From Candidatus Oxydemutator sp. (GTDB taxonomy: Bacteria; Pseudomonadota; Gammaproteobacteria; Poriferisulfidales; Oxydemutatoraceae), in contig OZ241883.1 of the NCBI GenBank assembly GCA_965203445.1, positions 960,001 through 1,024,000 on the forward strand: DNA of 64,000 bases. The letters are read 5' to 3'. The notes under the pieces were generated by a model. It was not told where the DNA came from. It saw only the letters and a program-made list of their open reading frames with translations, and ran no database searches. Made by a program: the position numbers and the translations under genes. Positions 9,295 to 18,136 of this stretch are shown in pieces (positions within the stretch are counted from its first letter, which is position 1; each line of letters opens with the position of its first letter).

Positions 9295-10191
9295 TCATAG
9301 ACTCGAGTGTGCTTCGGGGCGATCTGCTCCGGCCCCCCTTCGGGTGCCTTCCATCCAGTCGAGATTGCGCCCGACAACCAATTCGGTCATTTTCGCGTGG
9401 TGGGTGTTTCTCATCGGAATCGGCTTTGCCGCCAACCCGTGCCGGGACGCCATATCTTTCACTTCGTCGGCGTTGTCGTACGTCATGATGAAATCGCCCT
9501 TCAATTTGCAGCAGTGGTCAAAAAGCAATTCGTGATCCAGATCGCAGTATTTGTACAGCCGCTTGCCGGCTTTTTTGCCGCCCGCGGTGTAGGGAGGGTC
9601 AATGAAAAAGACGGCGTCGGTCTTCCGGTATTTTTTCAGCACCTCGAAAGCGTCCGTGTTCCGGAATTGCAGGCGTTCGCGTATATGGCCAATATCGCGC
9701 AATCTTCGGGCCAGCGTGGTCGGATACCAGCGCGACGATATTCCCTTCCCCGCTTCTCCGTTTTTCAGGAGGCCGGAACCCGCCGCCAGTATCCCTCCGT
9801 GGAACGTCCTGTTTTTGATGATGGTTCTGAACGCGCGCTCTTTGTTTGTTTGCGTTTTTTTATGCAATTCCCTGAGTGCATTTTCCCTGGTCATGACAAA
9901 GTTCGCAATGCGTTTTGCAAGCCACTCGGAGTCCCCGCCGACAACGGATTTCCAGACGGCGGCGATGTCTTCGTCCAACTCGACCATCAGGGCGGCTTCG
10001 ACGAGATTCTCGAAAACGGCGGTCAGCGACACAATCCCGCCGCCGGCAAACGGTTCCACGAGCAGCCGGGGCTTGTCCGGTTGACTGCGGATCCACCGAC
10101 GCAATTCGGGCACGAACCAAGTCTTTCCGCCAGGGTACCGAAAGGGGCTGCGCTGCGGCACCGAGGCGACGTTCACGGTTTTCTGCGACAA
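9295..10191 (-). CDS. Dam-like (D12 class) N6-adenine DNA methyltransferase, orphan; start uncertain (TTG 10191)
   Basis: SPFRYPGGK, EPFAGGG, FFIDPPY. Confidence 0.88.
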   Translation of the reverse strand: MSQKTVNVASVPQRSPFRYPGGKTWFVPELRRWIRSQPDKPRLLVEPFAGGGIVSLTAVFENLVEAALMVELDEDIAAVWKSVVGGDSEWLAKRIANFVMTRENALRELHKKTQTNKERAFRTIIKNRTFHGGILAAGSGLLKNGEAGKGISSRWYPTTLARRLRDIGHIRERLQFRNTDAFEVLKKYRKTDAVFFIDPPYTAGGKKAGKRLYKYCDLDHELLFDHCCKLKGDFIMTYDNADEVKDMASRHGLAAKPIPMRNTHHAKMTELVVGRNLDWMEGTRRGAGADRPEAHSSL

Positions 10192-10214
10192 GGGGATTAG
10201 ACAGGGGATTAGAC
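10191..10214. repeat. 12-bp tandem duplication AGGGGATTAGAC x2
   Basis: 10191-10202 and 10203-10214 identical. Confidence 0.9.
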
Positions 10215-10248
10215 GCTGTGGAACGGCGGCTGAGGCAGTGGGATATTT

Positions 10249-10360
10249 GGGAATTATATAGAATGTTGTGCAAGGCACCGCATCCCATCCATTTGACGTT
10301 TCACAGGCCGAGTAACCTCACCACCTCCACGTCCAGCAGCCCTATTCCCGAAGGCCAGTA
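10249..10360 (-). ncRNA. Predicted omega-RNA scaffold overlapping the tnpB A 3' end
   Basis: Stem-loops conserved with copy B, a compensatory pair and a possible pseudoknot with the terminal ATTCCC; boundaries inferred. Confidence 0.6.
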
Positions 10361-11474
10361 TATTCAATGCGGCATTCACATCCGCATTGTCCCGATGACC
10401 GCAGGCGCTACACTCGAAGACCGCCTGGGTCTTTCTGTTTTCTTTATCTACGTTCCCACATTTACTGCATGTCTGACTTGTGTATGCGGGGTTCACGTAG
10501 TTCGTATCCGTCTTGTAATCCAGACACTGATGAAACTTTCCCCAACAAGACGCCAGGATCACGCGGTTCAGTCCGGTCTTTGCACGGACATTCGTTCCAG
10601 GGTTATCCTTCGTTCCCTTGGCGCTTCTTGTTAGCCCCTGGTTGTTCAATTTCTCCAGGTGCACAAGAGAGTAGTTATCGGCCACTTGCCTCGATGTGCC
10701 ATGGCACCAGTTCCGTCTGATATGACGCAACTTGGCCTGCGCTTTCTGGTGTAACGATTGCGCACGCCTCCACCGGTTCGACGCCTTGATCCCCTTCTTG
10801 CGGTTCGGCCCCTGACGCCTTGCCATCATCCTCTGAGAACGCCTGACGCGCCGCTCATGCCCTGCCATATCCGGCATACGAAATACCTTTCCATCAGAAC
10901 AGGTTACCTGACTGACGTTACGGTCTATTCCTACAGAGTACCCTACTTTCGATACTTCGGCCTGTTCCACTTCGTATGTGATATACGCGTACCACTTGCC
11001 GCATTCCCGCTTGACCGTGCCGGATTTGGGCACGCCGTCCGGATACGGATTGTGGCCAAGCAGCAGCACCTCGCCTATCCTGGCGATGTAGAGATAACGT
11101 CCGTTCAAGCGGAACGCTCCGGTGCATAACGGAAAACTATCAGGGCGGACATACTTGGCGTGAAACCTCGGCAGGCCTCCCTCTTTCTTGAGGAATTGCC
11201 TGTACGCGGTCTCTATCGGCTTCAACGCTTGGCGCACTATCGGCATGGAATACTCCTGCAACCACGTATCGTCATCCCTGCGCAATGCCGTGAACCGCTT
11301 GCCAAGAGAATAAAACCGGTAATCGCACTCGCCATCCTCGGCATACTCGTCACGCAACTTGCCCACAAAATGGTTCCACACGTAACGGCACGCACCAGCC
11401 GTGCCCGCCAACTTGCGGGCCTTGACTTGAGTTCCTGCATGAACTCTATATCGAATTGTTCGATACATTTTCAT
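10254..11474 (-). CDS. tnpB: RNA-guided endonuclease TnpB (copy A)
   Basis: GACRYVWN, RuvC-I GIDRN, RuvC-II HLEKL, YTSQTCSKCG...CSACG zinc finger, RuvC-III NADVNAALNI; stop codon inside TIR. Confidence 0.95.
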   Translation of the reverse strand: MKMYRTIRYRVHAGTQVKARKLAGTAGACRYVWNHFVGKLRDEYAEDGECDYRFYSLGKRFTALRRDDDTWLQEYSMPIVRQALKPIETAYRQFLKKEGGLPRFHAKYVRPDSFPLCTGAFRLNGRYLYIARIGEVLLLGHNPYPDGVPKSGTVKRECGKWYAYITYEVEQAEVSKVGYSVGIDRNVSQVTCSDGKVFRMPDMAGHERRVRRSQRMMARRQGPNRKKGIKASNRWRRAQSLHQKAQAKLRHIRRNWCHGTSRQVADNYSLVHLEKLNNQGLTRSAKGTKDNPGTNVRAKTGLNRVILASCWGKFHQCLDYKTDTNYVNPAYTSQTCSKCGNVDKENRKTQAVFECSACGHRDNADVNAALNILAFGNRAAGRGGGEVTRPVKRQMDGMRCLAQHSI

Positions 11475-11580
11475 TTTCCCGCACAACATTCTATATAATT
11501 CCCCATTATATCAGTTTGGGCGGGTTAGAAACATTGACCTGCCGAACGGCGAGTTTCAAGATGAACGGGAGAGTTGTCCC

Positions 11581-12270
11581 ATGCGTCTATCAGTAATCGT
11601 TTTGGCCTTCGCCTGCCTTGCGGGTTGTGGAGGGTCTTCGGAAAACGGCGTGCGGCACGCCAGGCCCGACTCGTTCGTGGTCGTCAACGAGACCATGCCC
11701 GCCGCCATATTCGACGTCAGGTATTATTCCGCCGACAACTTTCTCGGCACCAGGGTGCGCGGCTATGCGGCCCCTTTGTGCATCCTCGCCGAACCGGCCG
11801 CCGCGGCTTTGCGGCGGGTGCAGCAGGAGCTTGGCGCGCGCGGCTATACCGTCAAGATTTTCGATTGTTTCCGCCCGCAGCGGGCGGTGGATCACTTCGT
11901 CGCGTGGGCGCAAGATGCAAGCGATACCAAAATGAAATCAGAGTATTACCCGAACGAGGAAAAGTCCCGGCTGATAGAGAAAGGTTACATCGCCGACCGC
12001 TCGGGCCACAGCAGGGGCGGCACGGTGGATCTGACGCTGGCACGCAAGGCCGACTCGAAAGAACTGGACATGGGAACCCCTTTCGACTACTTCGACACGC
12101 TGTCCAACACGGCCGATCCGCGCATCACCGAAGACCAGAAGAACAACCGCCTGTTGCTGAAGACAACCATGGAGAAACACGGGTTCGTCAACTACGACAA
12201 AGAATGGTGGCACTACACGCTCAAGGACGAACCGTACCCGGATACGTACTTCGACTTTCCGGTCGAATGA
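11581..12270 (+). CDS. ddpX: D-Ala-D-Ala dipeptidase (VanX/DdpX, M15D), lipoprotein
   Basis: LAGC lipobox; DCFRP, SGHSRGGTVD, EWWHY. Confidence 0.88.
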   Translation: MRLSVIVLAFACLAGCGGSSENGVRHARPDSFVVVNETMPAAIFDVRYYSADNFLGTRVRGYAAPLCILAEPAAAALRRVQQELGARGYTVKIFDCFRPQRAVDHFVAWAQDASDTKMKSEYYPNEEKSRLIEKGYIADRSGHSRGGTVDLTLARKADSKELDMGTPFDYFDTLSNTADPRITEDQKNNRLLLKTTMEKHGFVNYDKEWWHYTLKDEPYPDTYFDFPVE

Positions 12271-12343
12271 TATTGAAGGTGGCTTGGCTGACGCGCCTAT
12301 GGCCACCTTACCCAGTTTGTTGTATGAGGCCAGAAACATTATT

Positions 12344-12382
12344 TTCTTGCATTTTGGGAGCCAAACTCCCGAAATGCAAGAA
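12344..12382. promoter_or_regulatory. 17-bp-arm palindrome ending on the A of the ATPase start codon
   Basis: TTCTTGCATTTTGGGAG-CCAAA-CTCCCGAAATGCAAGAA (16/17). Confidence 0.65.
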
Positions 12383-13563
12383 TGATACCGCGTCTGCTCG
12401 AAAATCAAATCCTTGACGCTCTTCGCGCGATGCCCGTGGTCGCCATCCTGGGGCCGCGCCAAGTCGGCAAAACTACGCTTGCGCTTGCGATCACCCACGA
12501 CAAAGTCGGCAAAGAAGTCCTCTATCTGGATTTGGAGCGAGATTCCGATCTGGCCAAGCTGAATGATGCCGAGGCCTATCTCAAACGGTTCGGCAACCGT
12601 CTGCTGATCATTGACGAGGTGCAGAGAAAGCCGGATTTGTTCAGGGTGTTGCGCAGCCTCATTGACGCCAGAAGGCGCGCCGGCGAGAAAGGGGGGCTTT
12701 TGTTGTTGGGTTCGGCTGCCCGCGGACTGCTCCAGCATTCCTCTGAGACACTGGCGGGTCGCATTCGTTATTTGGAGTTGAGCACTCTCTCTGCGCTGGA
12801 AATGTATCGGGCGAAGGTTCCGGGTTTTACGATGGAAAATCTGTGGCTCAGAGGCGGTTTCCCCGATGGTTGTCTGGTGGCAAACGACGATGAGAGTTGG
12901 AACTGGCGTTCTGACTTTATTGCCTCTTACGTGGAACGTGACATGGCGTTGCTGGGGCCGAAGGTCCCGGCCACGCGAATGAGGCGCTTTTGGAGCATGT
13001 TGGCTCATTGGCACGGGCAGCAGATCAATCTGTCGTCGTTGGGCAAAAGCCTTGAAGTGGATCACAAAACCATCCGATCCTACCTGGACACACTGACCGA
13101 TTTTTACATGGTCAGACAGTTGCCCCCATGGTCGGGTAACACGAGAAAACGGCTGGTCAAATCGGCCAAGGTCTATATCCGGGACAGCGGCATATTGCAC
13201 CGCCTTTTGAATATCCCGGACTATGAAACCCTGTTGGGGCATCCGGCATTGGGCGCGAGTTGGGAAGGCTTTGTGTTGGAAAACATCCTCGTCGGTTTGT
13301 CCGATAAATGGCAATCCAGCTACTACAGAACGGCGGATCGGCATGAGCTTGATCTGGTTCTGGAAGGGCCGAAACGGGAGACCTGGGCTATAGAGGTAAA
13401 ACGTTCGACGGCGCCCAAAGTAAGCAGCCTCTATCATTCTGCGTGCGCTGAGATCGGGGCAACGAGAAAGGTGGTGGTTTATCCAGGCGCGGACAGATTC
13501 CCGCTGGCTGATAACGCCGAGGCCGTCGGCCTCAACGCATTTTTGTCTGATCTGGCGCGGTAA
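12382..13563 (+). CDS. AAA_14 ATPase with HTH and DUF4143 / PD-(D/E)xK C-terminus
   Basis: GPRQVGKT, IIDEVQ, SETLAGRI, ELDLV...AIEVK. Confidence 0.9.
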   Translation: MIPRLLENQILDALRAMPVVAILGPRQVGKTTLALAITHDKVGKEVLYLDLERDSDLAKLNDAEAYLKRFGNRLLIIDEVQRKPDLFRVLRSLIDARRRAGEKGGLLLLGSAARGLLQHSSETLAGRIRYLELSTLSALEMYRAKVPGFTMENLWLRGGFPDGCLVANDDESWNWRSDFIASYVERDMALLGPKVPATRMRRFWSMLAHWHGQQINLSSLGKSLEVDHKTIRSYLDTLTDFYMVRQLPPWSGNTRKRLVKSAKVYIRDSGILHRLLNIPDYETLLGHPALGASWEGFVLENILVGLSDKWQSSYYRTADRHELDLVLEGPKRETWAIEVKRSTAPKVSSLYHSACAEIGATRKVVVYPGADRFPLADNAEAVGLNAFLSDLAR

Positions 13564-13569
13564 CGACCG

Positions 13570-15087
13570 TCAGGCCAGAAACAAATCGTAGCCCGGGTTG
13601 CCCGACTCGTCCTGATAGGCGTAGGGCGATTCGGCCAGCAGCGTCCTGAACCCCGCCAGTTCGCCGTCCGGCACCTGTATTCCCGCCAGCACGCGCCCGT
13701 AGGCGGCGCCGTGGTTGCGGTAGTGGAACAGGCTGATGTTCCAGCGTCGCCCGCCGATGTACTCCAGGAACTCGAGCAGCGCGCCCGGTCTTTCGGGAAA
13801 CTGAAAGCGGCACAGGCGTTCGTCGTTCAGACGCCCGGCGCGGCCGCCGATCATGTGACGCAGGTGCAGTTTCGCCATCTCGTTGTCCGACAGGTCGGCG
13901 ACCGGGTAGCCGTTGTCGTGCAACGCCGTCAGCACCGCGTCTTTGTCTTGCGCGTCGTCGAATTGCAGGCCGACGAAAATACGCGCCCGCGCCTCGTCGG
14001 CGTAGCGGTAGTTGAACTCGGTGATCGTGCGCCTGCCGATGGTGCGGCAGAAATCGAGGAAGCTGCCGGGACGTTCCGGTATCGTCACCGCGAGCAGCGA
14101 TTCGGCGCCCTCGCCGATCTCGTAGCGTTCGACGACGTGCTTCAGGCGGTCGAAGTTGATATTGGCGCCGGAGGCGATTGCGACCAGCCCGCACCCGCGC
14201 AGCCGCTCGGCACGCGCGTATTTCTTCAGGCCCGCGATGGACAGTGCGCCGGCGGGCTCGAGCAGCGCGCGCGTGTCGTCGAAGTGGTCCTTGACCGCGG
14301 CGCAGATCTCGTCGGTCGTAACCAGCACGACGTCGTCCACCGTACGCCGCGCGACGCGGAAAGTCTCGTCGCCGATGCGCCGCACCGCGGCGCCGTCGGC
14401 GAACAATCCGACTTTGTCGAGCGTCACCGGTTCGCCACGGCGCAGCGCCTCGGCCAGCGTCGGCGCGTCCTCGGGTTCGACGCCGATGACGCGCACCTCA
14501 GGGCGCGCGTGTTTCAGGTAGGACGCGACCCCGGCGATCAGGCCGCCGCCGCCGACCGGCACGAACACCGCGTGCAGGTCGTCGCCGCATTGCCGGTGAA
14601 TCTCCTTGCCGACCGAACCCTGCCCCGCGATCACGTCGGCGTCGTCGTACGGATGGACGAAGGTCAGCGCGCGTTCGGCGGCGAGTTGCAATGCGTGCTC
14701 GCAGGCCTGATCGTAGGTGTCGCCGTGTTGGACGATGTCCGCGCCCAACAAGCGCACGGCCTCGACCTTGATACGCGGCGTCGTGCGCGGCATCACGATC
14801 AGCGCGCGTATGCCGAGCTGGCGCGCCGCCAGCGCCACGCCCTGCGCGTGGTTGCCGGCGGAGGCGGCGATGACGCCGGCGTGCTGCTCGCGTTGCGACA
14901 GGTGCGCGATCTTGTTATAGGCGCCGCGCAGCTTGAACGAGAACACCGGCTGCAAGTCCTCGCGCTTCAGGCGCACGTCGCAGCCGAGGCGCGCGCTCAG
15001 CTTGGGCGCCGCCTCCAGCGGCGTTACCCGCGCGACGTCATAGACCTTGCAGGCGTCTATCGCCCGGATGTAGTCGTAGGGGGGCAT
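13570..15087 (-). CDS. ilvA: Threonine ammonia-lyase, biosynthetic
   Basis: KREDLQPVFSFKLRGA, SAGNHAQG, two ACT-like domains (PERPG, FHYRNHG). Confidence 0.96.
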   Translation of the reverse strand: MPPYDYIRAIDACKVYDVARVTPLEAAPKLSARLGCDVRLKREDLQPVFSFKLRGAYNKIAHLSQREQHAGVIAASAGNHAQGVALAARQLGIRALIVMPRTTPRIKVEAVRLLGADIVQHGDTYDQACEHALQLAAERALTFVHPYDDADVIAGQGSVGKEIHRQCGDDLHAVFVPVGGGGLIAGVASYLKHARPEVRVIGVEPEDAPTLAEALRRGEPVTLDKVGLFADGAAVRRIGDETFRVARRTVDDVVLVTTDEICAAVKDHFDDTRALLEPAGALSIAGLKKYARAERLRGCGLVAIASGANINFDRLKHVVERYEIGEGAESLLAVTIPERPGSFLDFCRTIGRRTITEFNYRYADEARARIFVGLQFDDAQDKDAVLTALHDNGYPVADLSDNEMAKLHLRHMIGGRAGRLNDERLCRFQFPERPGALLEFLEYIGGRRWNISLFHYRNHGAAYGRVLAGIQVPDGELAGFRTLLAESPYAYQDESGNPGYDLFLA

Positions 15088-15111
15088 CGGTTTTTCAGCG
15101 AGAGTCTGAGA

Positions 15112-15119
15112 AAACATAA
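15112..15119. repeat. 8-bp target-site duplication AAACATAA (second copy 16432-16439)
   Basis: Identical 8-mers directly abut both TIRs of element B. Confidence 0.92.
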
Positions 15120-15160
15120 GGGAATTATATATCTAAATCTACAGAATAGTGGTGAAGTAC

Positions 15161-15188
15161 TTGATTTTCTATAGGAATATGGTATGAT
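15161..15188 (+). promoter_or_regulatory. Putative sigma70 promoter of tnpB B (likely leaderless mRNA)
   Basis: TTGATT-N16-TATGAT with TGn extension, 8 nt before ATG 15197. Confidence 0.5.
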
Positions 15189-15196
15189 GTTTTGTG

Positions 15197-16426
15197 ATGA
15201 AAGTCCATAGAACAATCCGGTATAGGTTGCATCCCGGTACGCAGGCCAAAGCCCGCAAGTTGGCGGGATTGGCGGGGGCGTGCAGGTTCGTATGGAATCA
15301 TTTCGTAGGGAAGTTAAGGGACGAGTATCTGGCATATGGATGCTGTAAGCCTTGGTATTTTACATTGGGCAAGCAGTTCACTCTGTTACGTCGCCACTGT
15401 GAACCCTGGTTGCAGGAATACTCGGCCAACATAGTAAAGGCATCTTTGAAACAGTTGGAAACGACGTACAAGCAGTTTTATAAGAAAGAGGGCGGATTGC
15501 CGAGGTTCCATGCAAAATATATGCATCCCGATAGTTTTCCCTTGGTGACGGGGACGTTCCATCTGAAAGGCCGTTACTTGCACATCGCCAAGATAGGCGA
15601 GGTGCTGTTGCTTGGCCACTATCCCTATCCGGGCGGCGTGCCGAAGTCCGGCACGGTCAAGCGGGAATGCGGCAGGTGGTATGCGTATATCACGTATGAA
15701 GTGGAACAATCCGAAGCATTGAAACCTGTAAGAGAAGTCGGCATAGACCGCAACGTCGGTCAGGTAACATTATCCGACGGGACGATGTATCGTATGCCGG
15801 ATACGGCAAAACATGAACGTCGCGTCAGGCGTTATCAGAAGAAGATGGCTAGGCGACAGGGGCCGAACCGCAAGAAAGGGATCAAGGCGTCGAACCGGTG
15901 GAAGCGCGCACAGTTGCTTTATCAGAAGGCACAGGCCACGTTGCGACACGTCAGACAGAATTGGTGCCATGGCGTATCGAGGGAAGTGGCCGATAAATAC
16001 TCCCTTGTGCACCTGGAGCAGTTGAACAATCAAGGGATGACAAGAAGCGCCAAGGGAACAAAGGAGGAACCCGGAACCAACGTTCGCGCGAAGAGCGGCT
16101 TGAACCGCGTGATCCTGGCGTCATGCTGGGGCAAGTTTCACCAGTGCCTGGACTACAAGACGAATACGAATTACATAAACCCCGCATACACAAGTCAGAC
16201 ATGCAATAAATGCGGGCACATTGACAAGAACAACAGAAAGACTCAGGCGGTATTTATCTGTACCGCTTGCGGTCATCGGGATAACGCGGATGTTAATGCC
16301 GCGTTGAATATACTGGCCTTCGGGAATGGGGCTACTGGACGTGGAGGTGATGACGTTAGTCGGCCTGTGAAGCGTCAAATGGATACCAGAAATCAACAAG
16401 AAAGTCTTGTAGATTTAGGTATATAA
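15197..16426 (+). CDS. tnpB: RNA-guided endonuclease TnpB (copy B)
   Basis: GIDRN / HLEQL / NADVNAALNI RuvC D-E-D intact; CNKCG...CTACG zinc finger; stop codon inside TIR. Confidence 0.95.
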   Translation: MKVHRTIRYRLHPGTQAKARKLAGLAGACRFVWNHFVGKLRDEYLAYGCCKPWYFTLGKQFTLLRRHCEPWLQEYSANIVKASLKQLETTYKQFYKKEGGLPRFHAKYMHPDSFPLVTGTFHLKGRYLHIAKIGEVLLLGHYPYPGGVPKSGTVKRECGRWYAYITYEVEQSEALKPVREVGIDRNVGQVTLSDGTMYRMPDTAKHERRVRRYQKKMARRQGPNRKKGIKASNRWKRAQLLYQKAQATLRHVRQNWCHGVSREVADKYSLVHLEQLNNQGMTRSAKGTKEEPGTNVRAKSGLNRVILASCWGKFHQCLDYKTNTNYINPAYTSQTCNKCGHIDKNNRKTQAVFICTACGHRDNADVNAALNILAFGNGATGRGGDDVSRPVKRQMDTRNQQESLVDLGI

Positions 16427-16431
16427 TTCCC
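16313..16431 (+). ncRNA. Predicted omega-RNA scaffold overlapping the tnpB B 3' end
   Basis: GCCTT-CGGGAAT-GGGGC hairpin, GACG...CGTC stem, terminal hairpin 16383-16422, terminal ATTCCC; boundaries inferred. Confidence 0.6.
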
Positions 16432-16675
16432 AAACATAATACTGTAAAGGCCTTATATTTAAGTGCCGGGCTTTCCTCGGTTACTCTGGTATCCCCCGTC
16501 ATCCTCCGCGAAAGTGGGAACTTTAGTCTGGCCATTCTCGCCCCCGAACCTTCGCGGGCTATTTCCGATTGTTTTTAAGCCATTGATATAGAATTATTAT
16601 TTACGAATTTATTCAATAAGCAAAGTGAACTTCTCTTATATTGACTTTTCTTGGACTATCCACAGAATTGCTCCC

Positions 16676-18136
16676 GTGGAACTGATTCCCGCAGAGCAGT
16701 ACCGGGAGCGCATTTGCGCCGAAAATCCATGGTGGGATGAGGCGTCTCCTGGTACCGACAAAGCATTTCGGGATATGCGCCCGCGTGCCTATCTCGATTC
16801 CTTTGCCAAATTGGTGGAGGCAAGGGACGTGCGTCGCGCCGTCGTGCTGATGGGGCCGCGTCGCGTCGGCAAGACTGTTTTGCTGCAACACGTGATTCAG
16901 CGCTTGTTGGACGACGGTGTCCCGTCGCAAGCTATTGCCTACTTATCGTTGGACCAGCCCTTGTATGCCAACCGCTCCATTGAGGAACTCGTCGGCCATG
17001 CTCAAGGAGGTGGCACGCCGCCGAGCTCGCAACCGACTTTCCCGTCGTTGCGTGAAATCCAGTATCTGTTCCTGGATGAAATACAGTACCTGCGCGAATG
17101 GGAGCGTCATCTCAAGATATTCGTCGACGACCACCCGCGCATCAAATGCGTCGTTTCCGGGTCGGCGGCCGCGGCTCTGCGTTTGAAGAGCATCGAGTCC
17201 GGCACCGGACGCTTTACCGATTTTCTTCTGCCGCCACTGACGTTCTACGAGTTTATGGATTTACAGGGTATGGGCGACGTCGTCGTGCGCGAACGGCAGG
17301 GATGGTTTTGCGCGGACATTGACGCCCTCAACGAGCACTTCGTTCGCTACGTCAACATGGGCGGCTACCCTGAGGTGATTTTCTCCGAGAGTATTCGGAA
17401 AGACGTGAGACGCTACGTTCGCAGCGACATCATAGACAAGGTATTGCTGCGCGACTTGCCGAGCCTCTATGGCATCCGCGACATCCAGGATCTCAATTCG
17501 CTGTTTATGACCCTTGCCTGGCACACGGCGCAGGAAGTATCGTTGCAGGGGTTGTCGCAACATTCCGGTGTTTCCAGCCCGACGATCAAGAATTATCTGG
17601 AGTACCTGGAGGCCGCTTTCCTGATCAGGATAGTCCATCGTATTGATCGCAACGCCAAGCATTTCAAACGCGCCAATTACTTCAAGGTGCATTTGACCAC
17701 CCCGTCCATGCGCAGTGCTCTTTTCGGCCCGATAGAATCGAACGGCCGGGACATGGGCGCGCTGGTGGAAACGGCGATATTCTCGCAGTGGTTTCATGCG
17801 GACCTGGAGTTGCGTTACGCGCGTTGGCAGAGCGGCGAAGTTGACATCGTCTGTTTGGACGAGCGCTACAAGCCTCGCTGGTGCGTGGAAGTCAAATGGT
17901 CTGACTCCGTTGTTTCCCGGCCCCGCAAGACGACTCCTATCCGGTCTTTTCTCAAGACCCATCCCGGCGTCGAGGCCGCGTTCACGACGCGCTCGATGGA
18001 GGGAAAGTTGTCGCTTGCGCCGAACGTGACGGTGGATTGTCTGCCCGCGAGCGTTTATTGTTACTTGGCGGGTTTCCACGCCGTCGGCGACCGCTCGCGC
18101 GACCTGGTGTTGGGGGTGCGCGAAGGAACCCGCTGA
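16676..18136 (+). CDS. AAA_14 ATPase with HTH and nuclease-like C-terminus (DUF4143-related)
   Basis: ENPWW, GPRRVGKT, FLDEIQY, ESGTGRF, GEVDIV...CVEVKW. Confidence 0.88.
   Translation: MELIPAEQYRERICAENPWWDEASPGTDKAFRDMRPRAYLDSFAKLVEARDVRRAVVLMGPRRVGKTVLLQHVIQRLLDDGVPSQAIAYLSLDQPLYANRSIEELVGHAQGGGTPPSSQPTFPSLREIQYLFLDEIQYLREWERHLKIFVDDHPRIKCVVSGSAAAALRLKSIESGTGRFTDFLLPPLTFYEFMDLQGMGDVVVRERQGWFCADIDALNEHFVRYVNMGGYPEVIFSESIRKDVRRYVRSDIIDKVLLRDLPSLYGIRDIQDLNSLFMTLAWHTAQEVSLQGLSQHSGVSSPTIKNYLEYLEAAFLIRIVHRIDRNAKHFKRANYFKVHLTTPSMRSALFGPIESNGRDMGALVETAIFSQWFHADLELRYARWQSGEVDIVCLDERYKPRWCVEVKWSDSVVSRPRKTTPIRSFLKTHPGVEAAFTTRSMEGKLSLAPNVTVDCLPASVYCYLAGFHAVGDRSRDLVLGVREGTR

Follow-up and report, generated by a model that had tools for sequence, protein, structure and literature searches.

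A TnpB guide-RNA scaffold that appears to share the terminal inverted repeat of IS1595-type elements in Candidatus Oxydemutator

How is it possible for one short sequence to be gripped by a transposase and, at the same time, to serve as part of the RNA that guides a nuclease? TnpB, the ancestor of Cas12, is an RNA-guided nuclease whose biology is, to our knowledge, understood only for IS200/IS605 and IS607, elements that excise without a scar and keep a fixed transposon-adjacent motif (TAM) beside their left end. The question is raised here by a 64,000-nucleotide stretch of Candidatus Oxydemutator sp. (assembly GCA_965203445.1, contig OZ241883.1, positions 960,001 to 1,024,000 of the forward strand), which we call the window and which holds two intact copies, A and B, of a tnpB gene housed in a cut-and-paste insertion sequence. 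The last ~25 bases of the element appear to be both the inverted repeat of the transposase and the 3' part of a guide-RNA (omega-RNA) scaffold. We argue, with a probability of about three in four, that A and B are non-autonomous IS1595 elements with an omega-RNA scaffold embedded in the terminal inverted repeat (TIR) and a guide drawn from the flanking DNA.

What sort of element is this? The 2.38-Mb genome contains 13 full-length tnpB copies (found by tblastn), all of them intact open reading frames (ORFs) of 406-434 aa and each lying between TIRs, and the outer 12 bp of the TIR, GGGAATTATATA, occur in it 25 times, with no occurrence of the reversed control. A target-site duplication (TSD) of 8 bp, the length typical of IS1595, matches at 7 or 8 of its 8 positions in 10 of these 13 copies. 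The site of B is empty in two genomes of the same genus, where it reads (by eye) AAGCATGATACTGTAAAATCC, with the 8-mer present once; in those genomes, the right flank of B continues next to the site for only ~30 nt. The flanks of A (9850-10248 and 11504-11950) have no match in the same two genomes, which says nothing either way.

None of the tnpB elements encodes a transposase of its own, and so one must ask who moves them. The sole IS1595-family transposase of the genome (314 aa) lies outside the window in a 2616-bp element at 1978350-1980965, which has the TIR GGGAATTATATACTTAAATCTAC and the 8-bp TSD ATCAGAAA, shares its TIR tip with the tnpB elements and carries as passenger a 436-aa N6/N4 DNA methylase fused to an HNH nuclease. 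The transposase matches PF12762 (1.3e-43, the only match to that model in the genome), Zn_ribbon_IS1595 and NF033547 (205.9 bits). IS1595 transposases were also present in all five of the other tnpB-element genomes tested (six of six counting this one), and GGGAATTATATA ends stand beside IS1595 transposases in 8 of the 12 loci retrieved (two of these overlap at a single place). The genome, which is 100% complete, has no match to the Y1 TnpA (PF01797). TIRs, 8-bp TSDs (at seven or more of eight positions in 19 further loci, and with an empty site for B), no Y1 transposase and an IS1595 element with the same tip together make A and B non-autonomous IS1595-type elements; they are presumably moved in trans by the IS1595 transposase, judging from the shared termini and the co-occurrence. 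Assignment to IS200/IS605, including its tnpB-only IS1341 group, was considered and rejected on the 23-bp TIRs, the 8-bp TSDs and the missing Y1 TnpA, and B scores 152.9 bits with the NCBIfam model IS200_TnpB, under the cut-off of 425. The likeness is rather to IS1595 elements with passenger genes, which have a DDE_Tnp_IS1595 and zinc-ribbon transposase, TIRs starting GGGAATTAT and 8-bp TSDs; the differences are that the tnpB copies have no transposase and that their right end doubles as a predicted RNA scaffold. The element ends probably resemble those of the ISNwi1 group of ISfinder. This attribution to an IS1595-family DDE element with 8-bp TSDs, probably mobilised in trans, goes beyond what the preliminary description of this DNA had claimed.

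The nuclease itself looks like one that has been kept in use. The proteins of A and B match the Pfam families Cas12f1-like_TNB, OrfB_IS605 and HTH_OrfB_IS605, and B scores 214.6 bits with the NCBIfam model guided_TnpB (cut-off 100) and aligns to the ISDra2 TnpB structure 8h1j over residues 9-375 (E 5e-19), matches that bespeak the RuvC nuclease and zinc finger of a TnpB. D185, E275 and D363, which we take by analogy to be the RuvC triad, are invariant in 11 aligned copies. TnpB is under purifying selection: over 55 pairs, the gene body has a median ratio of nonsynonymous to synonymous rates (dN/dS) of 0.125, with proportions of synonymous (pS) and nonsynonymous (pN) differences of 0.664 and 0.194. 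In the tail that overlaps the predicted scaffold, from LAFGNG to the stop, pS is only 0.355 and pN is 0.260, so that synonymous sites, and not amino acids, are conserved; what is constrained in this stretch is the nucleotide sequence rather than the protein.

What might those nucleotides be held for? The conserved module is the last 104-151 nt of the elements, which fold with the tip AUUCCC left free. All copies share GGCCYYC-GGGAAY-RGGGC, then GGACGYGGAG and a variable stem-loop, followed by GGCCTGTGAARCGTCAAATGGATAC, a variable hairpin and finally (T)ATATAATTCCC. RNAfold gives the 119 nt of B -35.5 kcal/mol (z -2.16), with a free loop CGGGAAU, a helix GACGU/GCGUC around the inner stem-loop, a 40-nt terminal hairpin and an unpaired tail, AUAAUUCCC. 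As in the obligate mobile element-guided activity (OMEGA) systems, this predicted structured RNA overlaps the tnpB 3' end and reaches the right boundary of the element, and a segment upstream pairs with the bases just before the predicted guide. The preliminary description had reported from both copies a hairpin, GCCTT-CGGGAAT-RGGGC, with a loop complementary to the last six bases of the element, and these are indeed there; so are the change from GAC-GTTA-GTC in B to GAG-GTTA-CTC in A, which is one instance of the inner-stem covariation described below, the terminal hairpins of unrelated sequence at the same position, both of which fold, and the stop codons within the 23-nt TIR (16424-16426 in B, 10256-10254 in A), each ending 5 nt before the element does. 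One correction concerns the right boundary of B: the element stops at 16431, which puts ATTCCC at 16426-16431 and the guide at 16432-16451. Rfam includes some IS605-orfB motifs; with E values of up to 10 allowed, a search of 9800-17000 gave no match inside the elements and three weak ones (E 3-4.4) outside them, far below gathering scores.

The structure can also be followed in more distant relatives. A scan of genome contigs gave 76 loci at 46-79% best-segment identity (~52-62% for near-full-length copies), mostly in metagenome-assembled genomes of uncultured Gammaproteobacteria (Arenicellales, 'Porisulfidus', Thiotrichales, Chromatiales), with one genome of Opitutales. Most loci have TIRs beginning GGGAATTAT; among the 57 examined, the TSD matches at 8/8 positions in 13 and at 7/8 in 4. 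One Arenicellales clade has GGGACTTATATAC TIRs and a left end 300-580 nt upstream of tnpB, and its members (L077, L081, L086, L087, L089, L094-L098 and L129) thus carry extra 5' sequence. A metagenome scan added four loci, of which three, at 42-43% identity, are TIR elements with the tip ACGTCCC or AAGTCCC; these distant-clade contigs were used, and the fourth (L186, 27% identity) was left out. In the Opitutales locus L154, a further right-end-like sequence at ~1183-1225 ends GTAGTTCCC and the two full copies end GTAGTTTCG; this, together with the left end GGGAAC, makes the tips of the two full copies look slightly decayed. The MAFFT alignment has 74 scaffolds (73 distinct rows), 12 of them distinct copies of this genome and 62 from other genomes. 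Left out were L110 (a spurious anchor), e25k (identical to e1131k) and 11 of the 76 loci that are truncated or fragmentary and in which no scaffold was found; L072, L073, L074, L093 and L100 were placed by hand, and L114 was re-placed. The structure that we counted includes the pseudoknot, and the controls were 500 shuffles and a slid partner.

Do the loop and the tip pair? The six loop/tip pairs (columns 10-15 with 159-164) are formed in 97.7% of 437 cells, compared with 91.5% in shuffles, none of which reached the observed value, and at most 81.3% with a slid partner. The covariation score is 0.178 against 0.077 in shuffles (again 0 of 500), and three of the six pairs have double changes. 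Position 5 is AU in 50 rows, UG in 13, CG in 4, UA in 1 and something else in 5; position 6 is UA in 69, UG in 2, CG in 1 and other in 1. In this genome, the copy e896k has the loop GGGAAC and the right tip GTTCCC, and its left end is still GGGAAT. Arenicellales combine GGGATT with AGTCCC (a U.G pair), four of their loci have GGGACT with AGTCCC, L098 has GGGATT with AATCCC, and the distant metagenome clade, at 42-43% protein identity, has GGGAC with GTCCC. Wobble variants (GGGAAT/ATTTCC and GGGGAT/ATTCCC) occur as well.

The other helices tell a similar story. Over the whole structure, 91.2% of cells are paired, as opposed to 82.2% in shuffles (none of the 500 is as high) and 33-54% in slid controls. 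Stem 1 is 94% paired with double changes in two of five pairs (L093 and L100 replace GCCU/GGGC with GCGG/CCGC); the inner stem is likewise 94% paired, has double changes in three of five pairs and closes with CG in 20 rows and GC in 20; and the long-range helix has one pair that is GC in 45 and CG in 13 and another that is AU in 70 and GC in 3. Run on the MAFFT alignment, RNAalifold finds stem 1, the inner stem and no other helix. The inner TIR differs wholly between subfamilies (there are ~7 versions in this genome alone), and the terminal hairpins, being unrelated in sequence, cannot be aligned and were tested one sequence at a time. A hairpin is predicted at the same position in all 74 scaffolds, with a mean z of -2.44 (below -2 in 48 of them), a base of AUAC/GUAU and the inner TIR as its 3' arm. 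The covariation in homologues for which the preliminary description had looked ahead is thus found across 74 scaffolds, compensatory loop/tip changes included, and its proposal of an omega-RNA with the TIR tip as pseudoknot strand and the inner TIR as last stem gains from this and from the geometry of ISDra2, to which we come below. The evidence supports a three-fold use of the right TIR, which would be transposase site, tnpB stop codon and, as last stem and pseudoknot strand, part of the omega-RNA.

Table 1. Positions within the window of elements A and B, their genes and the parts of the predicted omega-RNA.
Feature	Positions	Strand	Basis or remark
Element B, 1312 bp, non-autonomous IS1595-type with tnpB	15120..16431	+	TIR 22/23 identical, TSD, empty site
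Left 8-bp TSD copy of B, AAACATAA	15112..15119	.	direct repeat on both flanks
Left TIR of B, 23 bp, GGGAATTATATATCTAAATCTAC	15120..15142	+	
tnpB of B, 410 aa, intact	15194..16426	+	Pfam, NCBIfam, PDB matches
Right TIR of B	16409..16431	+	hairpin 3' arm, stop 16424-16426, AUUCCC 16426-16431
Predicted omega-RNA scaffold of B, 116 nt	16316..16431	+	fold and covariation
Stem 1 GCCUU/GGGGC with 7-nt loop CGGGAAU	16316..16332	+	GCCTT 16316-16320, loop 16321-16327, GGGGC 16328-16332
Pseudoknot 5' strand GGGAAU, also tnpB codons Gly-Asn	16322..16327	+	
Long-range helix GACG(U)/(G)CGUC around inner stem-loop	16338..16376	+	
Inner stem GAC-GUUA-GUC of B	16352..16361	+	A counterpart: GAG-GTTA-CTC, 10319-10310
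Terminal hairpin of B (stem 4 equivalent), 40 nt	16383..16422	+	3' arm is inner right TIR
Predicted guide of B	16432..16451	+	inferred from pseudoknot geometry; first 8 nt are right TSD copy
Element A, 1255 bp, family of B	10249..11503	-	TIR 23/23, no TSD
tnpB of A, 411 aa, intact	10254..11489	-	
Predicted omega-RNA scaffold of A, 107 nt	10249..10355	-	loop GGGAAU 10349-10344, tip AUUCCC 10254-10249
Predicted guide of A (right-end flank)	10229..10248	-	prediction only

Where, then, would the guide be? In the solved omega-RNA of ISDra2 (Nakagawa et al. 2023, PMC10097598), the scaffold is 116 nt long and forms four stems, and positions -5..-3 pair with -103..-105 in a pseudoknot that has non-canonical pairs on its flanks; stem 4 precedes the 3' strand of the pseudoknot, after which come base -1 and, without a gap, the guide. 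What the preliminary description had taken as established, that TnpB omega-RNAs overlap the 3' end of the gene and make a pseudoknot with the terminal bases of the transposon ahead of the guide, is correct. In B, numbered in the same way, the loop occupies -110..-105, the terminal hairpin -49..-10 and the tip -6..-1 of a scaffold that is likewise 116 nt long; the TnpBs are homologous over their full length, both scaffolds overlap the tnpB 3' end and stop at the element boundary, and in both the pseudoknot ties the bases next to the guide to a site ~105 nt further upstream. The two systems differ in that the elements here have no Y1 TnpA, have TIRs and an 8-bp TSD in place of subterminal hairpins without a TSD, draw the pseudoknot 3' strand and last stem from TIR sequence recognised by the transposase and have no fixed TAM beside the left end. 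Because the geometry equals that of ISDra2, the predicted guide falls in the flank, and because an 8-bp TSD flanks B, the first 8 nt of that guide are the duplicated target. That the guide would be flanking DNA beginning with the duplicated 8-mer is, we infer, well supported.

If the guide is to find a target, something must act as a TAM, and it cannot be fixed, since the TSD is variable. We looked at 29 insertions with a clean TSD from this genome and from L057-L129. Immediately left of the 8-mer (position -1), G occurs in 19 of the 29 (p 1.6e-5); C is absent from all 58 bases at -1 and -2 (p 5.5e-7); position -3 is A in 15, so that the upstream pattern reads A, A/G, G. On the right side, position +1 is A in 16 and C in 5, and the asymmetry between G(-1) and C(+1) is marked (Fisher p 4e-4). 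In the five Arenicellales sites, position -1 is T instead of G, which could mean a different TAM in that TnpB clade. The asymmetry is unlike a symmetric transposase preference and would suit a TAM recognised on the 5' side of the guide match; we offer it as a hint, a lead and not a result.

The alternative that holds up best against this account accepts the scaffold and denies the homing guide: the RNA would end in the TIR, or TnpB would have some other target or act as a regulator, and the pairing would only stabilise the molecule. The RNA 3' ends are, after all, predicted only, the variable 8-bp TSD leaves the left end with no fixed TAM, unlike IS605 elements, and DDE excision makes its break unaided (PMC13565253). 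We nevertheless think this alternative unlikely. In ISDra2, the pseudoknot 3' strand (-6..-2) comes immediately before the guide, and in these elements it is the six final bases that pair; the invariant RuvC residues and strong purifying selection fit an active nuclease; and the left-flank bias depends on orientation, as a TAM would.

Could the conserved features belong to the DNA, with no RNA at all? They might be subterminal repeats bound by the transposase, or right-end hairpins left over from an IS200/IS605 ancestor. Transposase sites are commonly reiterated, the loop hexamer is the same as the first six TIR bases, the right end contains a third copy of the inner TIR, and one clade has a hairpin inside a palindromic TIR that is found at both ends. 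What decides us, and makes a DNA-only origin quite improbable, is the behaviour of the two ends where they can be told apart. Both ends are known for 37 elements, and of the 15 whose end hexamers are unequal, 10 have a loop more complementary to their right end, 1 has a loop more complementary to its left end, and 4 are tied; as far as sequences can tell, it is the right end that the loop follows, and not the consensus recognised by the transposase. The terminal hairpin belongs to right ends alone: in 28 elements, the right end has a mean z of -2.57 (18 below -2), and the left end, which lacks the hairpin, has +0.07 in sense (1 below -2) and +0.09 in antisense (4 below -2). G.U pairs are frequent (in A, for example), so that pairing is strand-specific and would work on the sense strand only; helices upstream of the TIR covary too; and the genome has no Y1 transposase that would speak of an IS200/IS605 past. 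Very improbable indeed is a mere coincidence of GGGAAT and ATTCCC, with the loop kept for its Gly-Asn codons and the tip for the transposase, for although both hexamers do lie under other constraints and are mostly invariant (the commonest pair fills 50 of 73 distinct rows even at the most variable position), precisely in those elements whose tip has become AGT or AAT, the loop codon is one for Thr (ACT) or Ile (ATT), and where the tip is GTT it is the synonymous AAC, which means that the RNA partner and not the protein dictates the change, and none of the 500 shuffles matches the observed pairing or covariation score.

Some observations pull against a TIR-embedded scaffold with a flank guide, and it is fair to set them side by side. 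The aligned sequences are related, so that the shuffle controls overstate significance; the independent compensatory events are few (~4); and the structure was taken from a member of the alignment itself and so has an advantage over slid controls. Six scaffolds carry a single pseudoknot mismatch when paired in register, namely L057 and L103 (U.U), L082 (C.C), L088 and L118 (A.C) and L120 (A.G), L118 and L120 being degraded tnpB copies, and the tip of L072 has decayed. The two Opitutales rows pair only after a shift of 1 nt (GGAAC with GTTTC, set back from the end by one base, like the pseudoknot of ISDra2). Cells in which the long-range helix is broken are mostly those of Arenicellales rows, the middle of which MAFFT misaligns. 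Copies A, e1431k and e2269k have no clean TSD. And because DDE excision already leaves a break in the donor (PMC13565253), it is harder to see what the element would gain from a homing nuclease than in the case of IS605 and IS607.

With these reservations, how might a TIR-embedded scaffold work? An IS1595 DDE transposase acting in trans would bind the ~23-bp TIRs and insert the element into AT-rich DNA with an 8-bp TSD. The tnpB transcript would read through the right end into the flank, and after processing, its last 104-151 element nucleotides would fold as an ISDra2-like scaffold in which the loop of stem 1 presents GGGAAU, the inner TIR supplies the 3' arm of the last stem and the tip, AUUCCC, pairs with the loop directly before the guide. 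That guide would be the duplicated 8-mer and the next 8-12 nt of flank. TnpB so loaded would cut an unoccupied copy of the site, and the occupied site would be spared, since the guide match there is preceded by the CCC of the tip. That an IS1595 element has made its right TIR into the 3' third of an omega-RNA, and that TnpB in fact tells empty sites from occupied ones by the two bases 5' of the TSD (a purine and never C, as against CCC) and so gives the element an RNA-guided drive, is a tentative idea that we hold to be doubtful.

Other remnants of the family lie scattered through the genome. Two internally deleted elements (247602-248387 and ~2222918-2223400) have lost most of tnpB and have kept a complete scaffold with the loop GGGAAT, the CGTCAAA motif, the hairpin and the ATTCCC tip, which makes them a possible source of additional guides in trans; together with the 13 that have an intact tnpB, they bring the complete scaffolds to 15. 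Derivatives resembling miniature inverted-repeat transposable elements, of 163 bp (113341-113503) and 180 bp (757576-757755), keep the TIRs and have no loop/stem 1 part. The left end of e1431k (1431141-1432433) is composite, an GGGAATTATAC... TIR being followed 24 nt on by a different TIR-like sequence, GGAGATTATATAGACAACTTGACAA, and its TSD is offset, which suggests a nested or recombined end. In the window, A and B stand head to head, left ends facing, around 3.6 kb of ordinary genes (11504-15119), an arrangement like that of a composite transposon; that possibility was rejected, the outer flanks forming no TSD and B having its own. Beside A is an ORF of 327 aa (9295-10278, minus strand) with a GTG start inside the right TIR of A (10249-10278); either the insertion of A supplied or replaced the 5' end of a gene, or the true start is further in.

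How much of this is new? The linkage of TnpB to DDE transposons is not. Altae-Tran et al. (2023, PMC10691335) describe DDE-linked TnpBs, naming IS630, with inverted terminal repeats and a tnpB that ends at most 250 bp from the transposon end, and consider solo tnpB genes likely to have moved in trans; a 2026 review (PMC13565253) lists ISL2, IS630 and IS1031 as DDE families with TnpB. The symmetrical terminal repeats, the tnpB 3' end near the element end and the solo tnpB between ends like those of a transposase element are all shared with the elements here. The families named are not IS1595, and the passages of these two sources that deal with them contain no RNA structure and no covariation of pseudoknot and TIR. 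We found no literature report that links TnpB to IS1595 or describes the three-fold use of a TIR, with the proviso that the supplements of PMC10691335 may list IS1595-linked branches. What we would add is the IS1595 link and the apparent co-evolution of a canonical omega-RNA module with the TIR. In eukaryotes, the guide-RNA (reRNA) scaffolds of Fanzors are predicted to include TIR and TSD, and pseudoknot rescue has been described for the TnpB of IS607 (Yoon et al. 2023, PMC10711439). The Fanzor TSD within the scaffold is short and fixed, and Fanzor1 is reported to lack the pseudoknot; the elements here retain one, and their 8-bp TSD, being variable, cannot be scaffold and would instead open the guide as its first 8 nt.

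The family would thus offer a bacterial counterpart to the Fanzors of eukaryotic TIR elements, and its compact nucleases (406-434 aa), with scaffolds of 104-151 nt, are candidates for characterisation. It has many diverged copies and natural compensatory mutations, which makes several questions testable: how one short sequence serves transposase and RNA scaffold together, what acts as a TAM when the target is not fixed and whether RNA-guided homing helps a cut-and-paste transposon at all. If the tentative idea of an RNA-guided drive is true, three simultaneous constraints on the TIR would explain why the left inner TIR, the right inner TIR and the arm of an upstream hairpin vary together, and every new insertion would arm a guide from its own duplicated target and flank. 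A DDE transposon with an RNA-guided drive of this kind would convert the remaining empty copies of the chromosome, which could be useful in polyploid or recombining symbiont populations.

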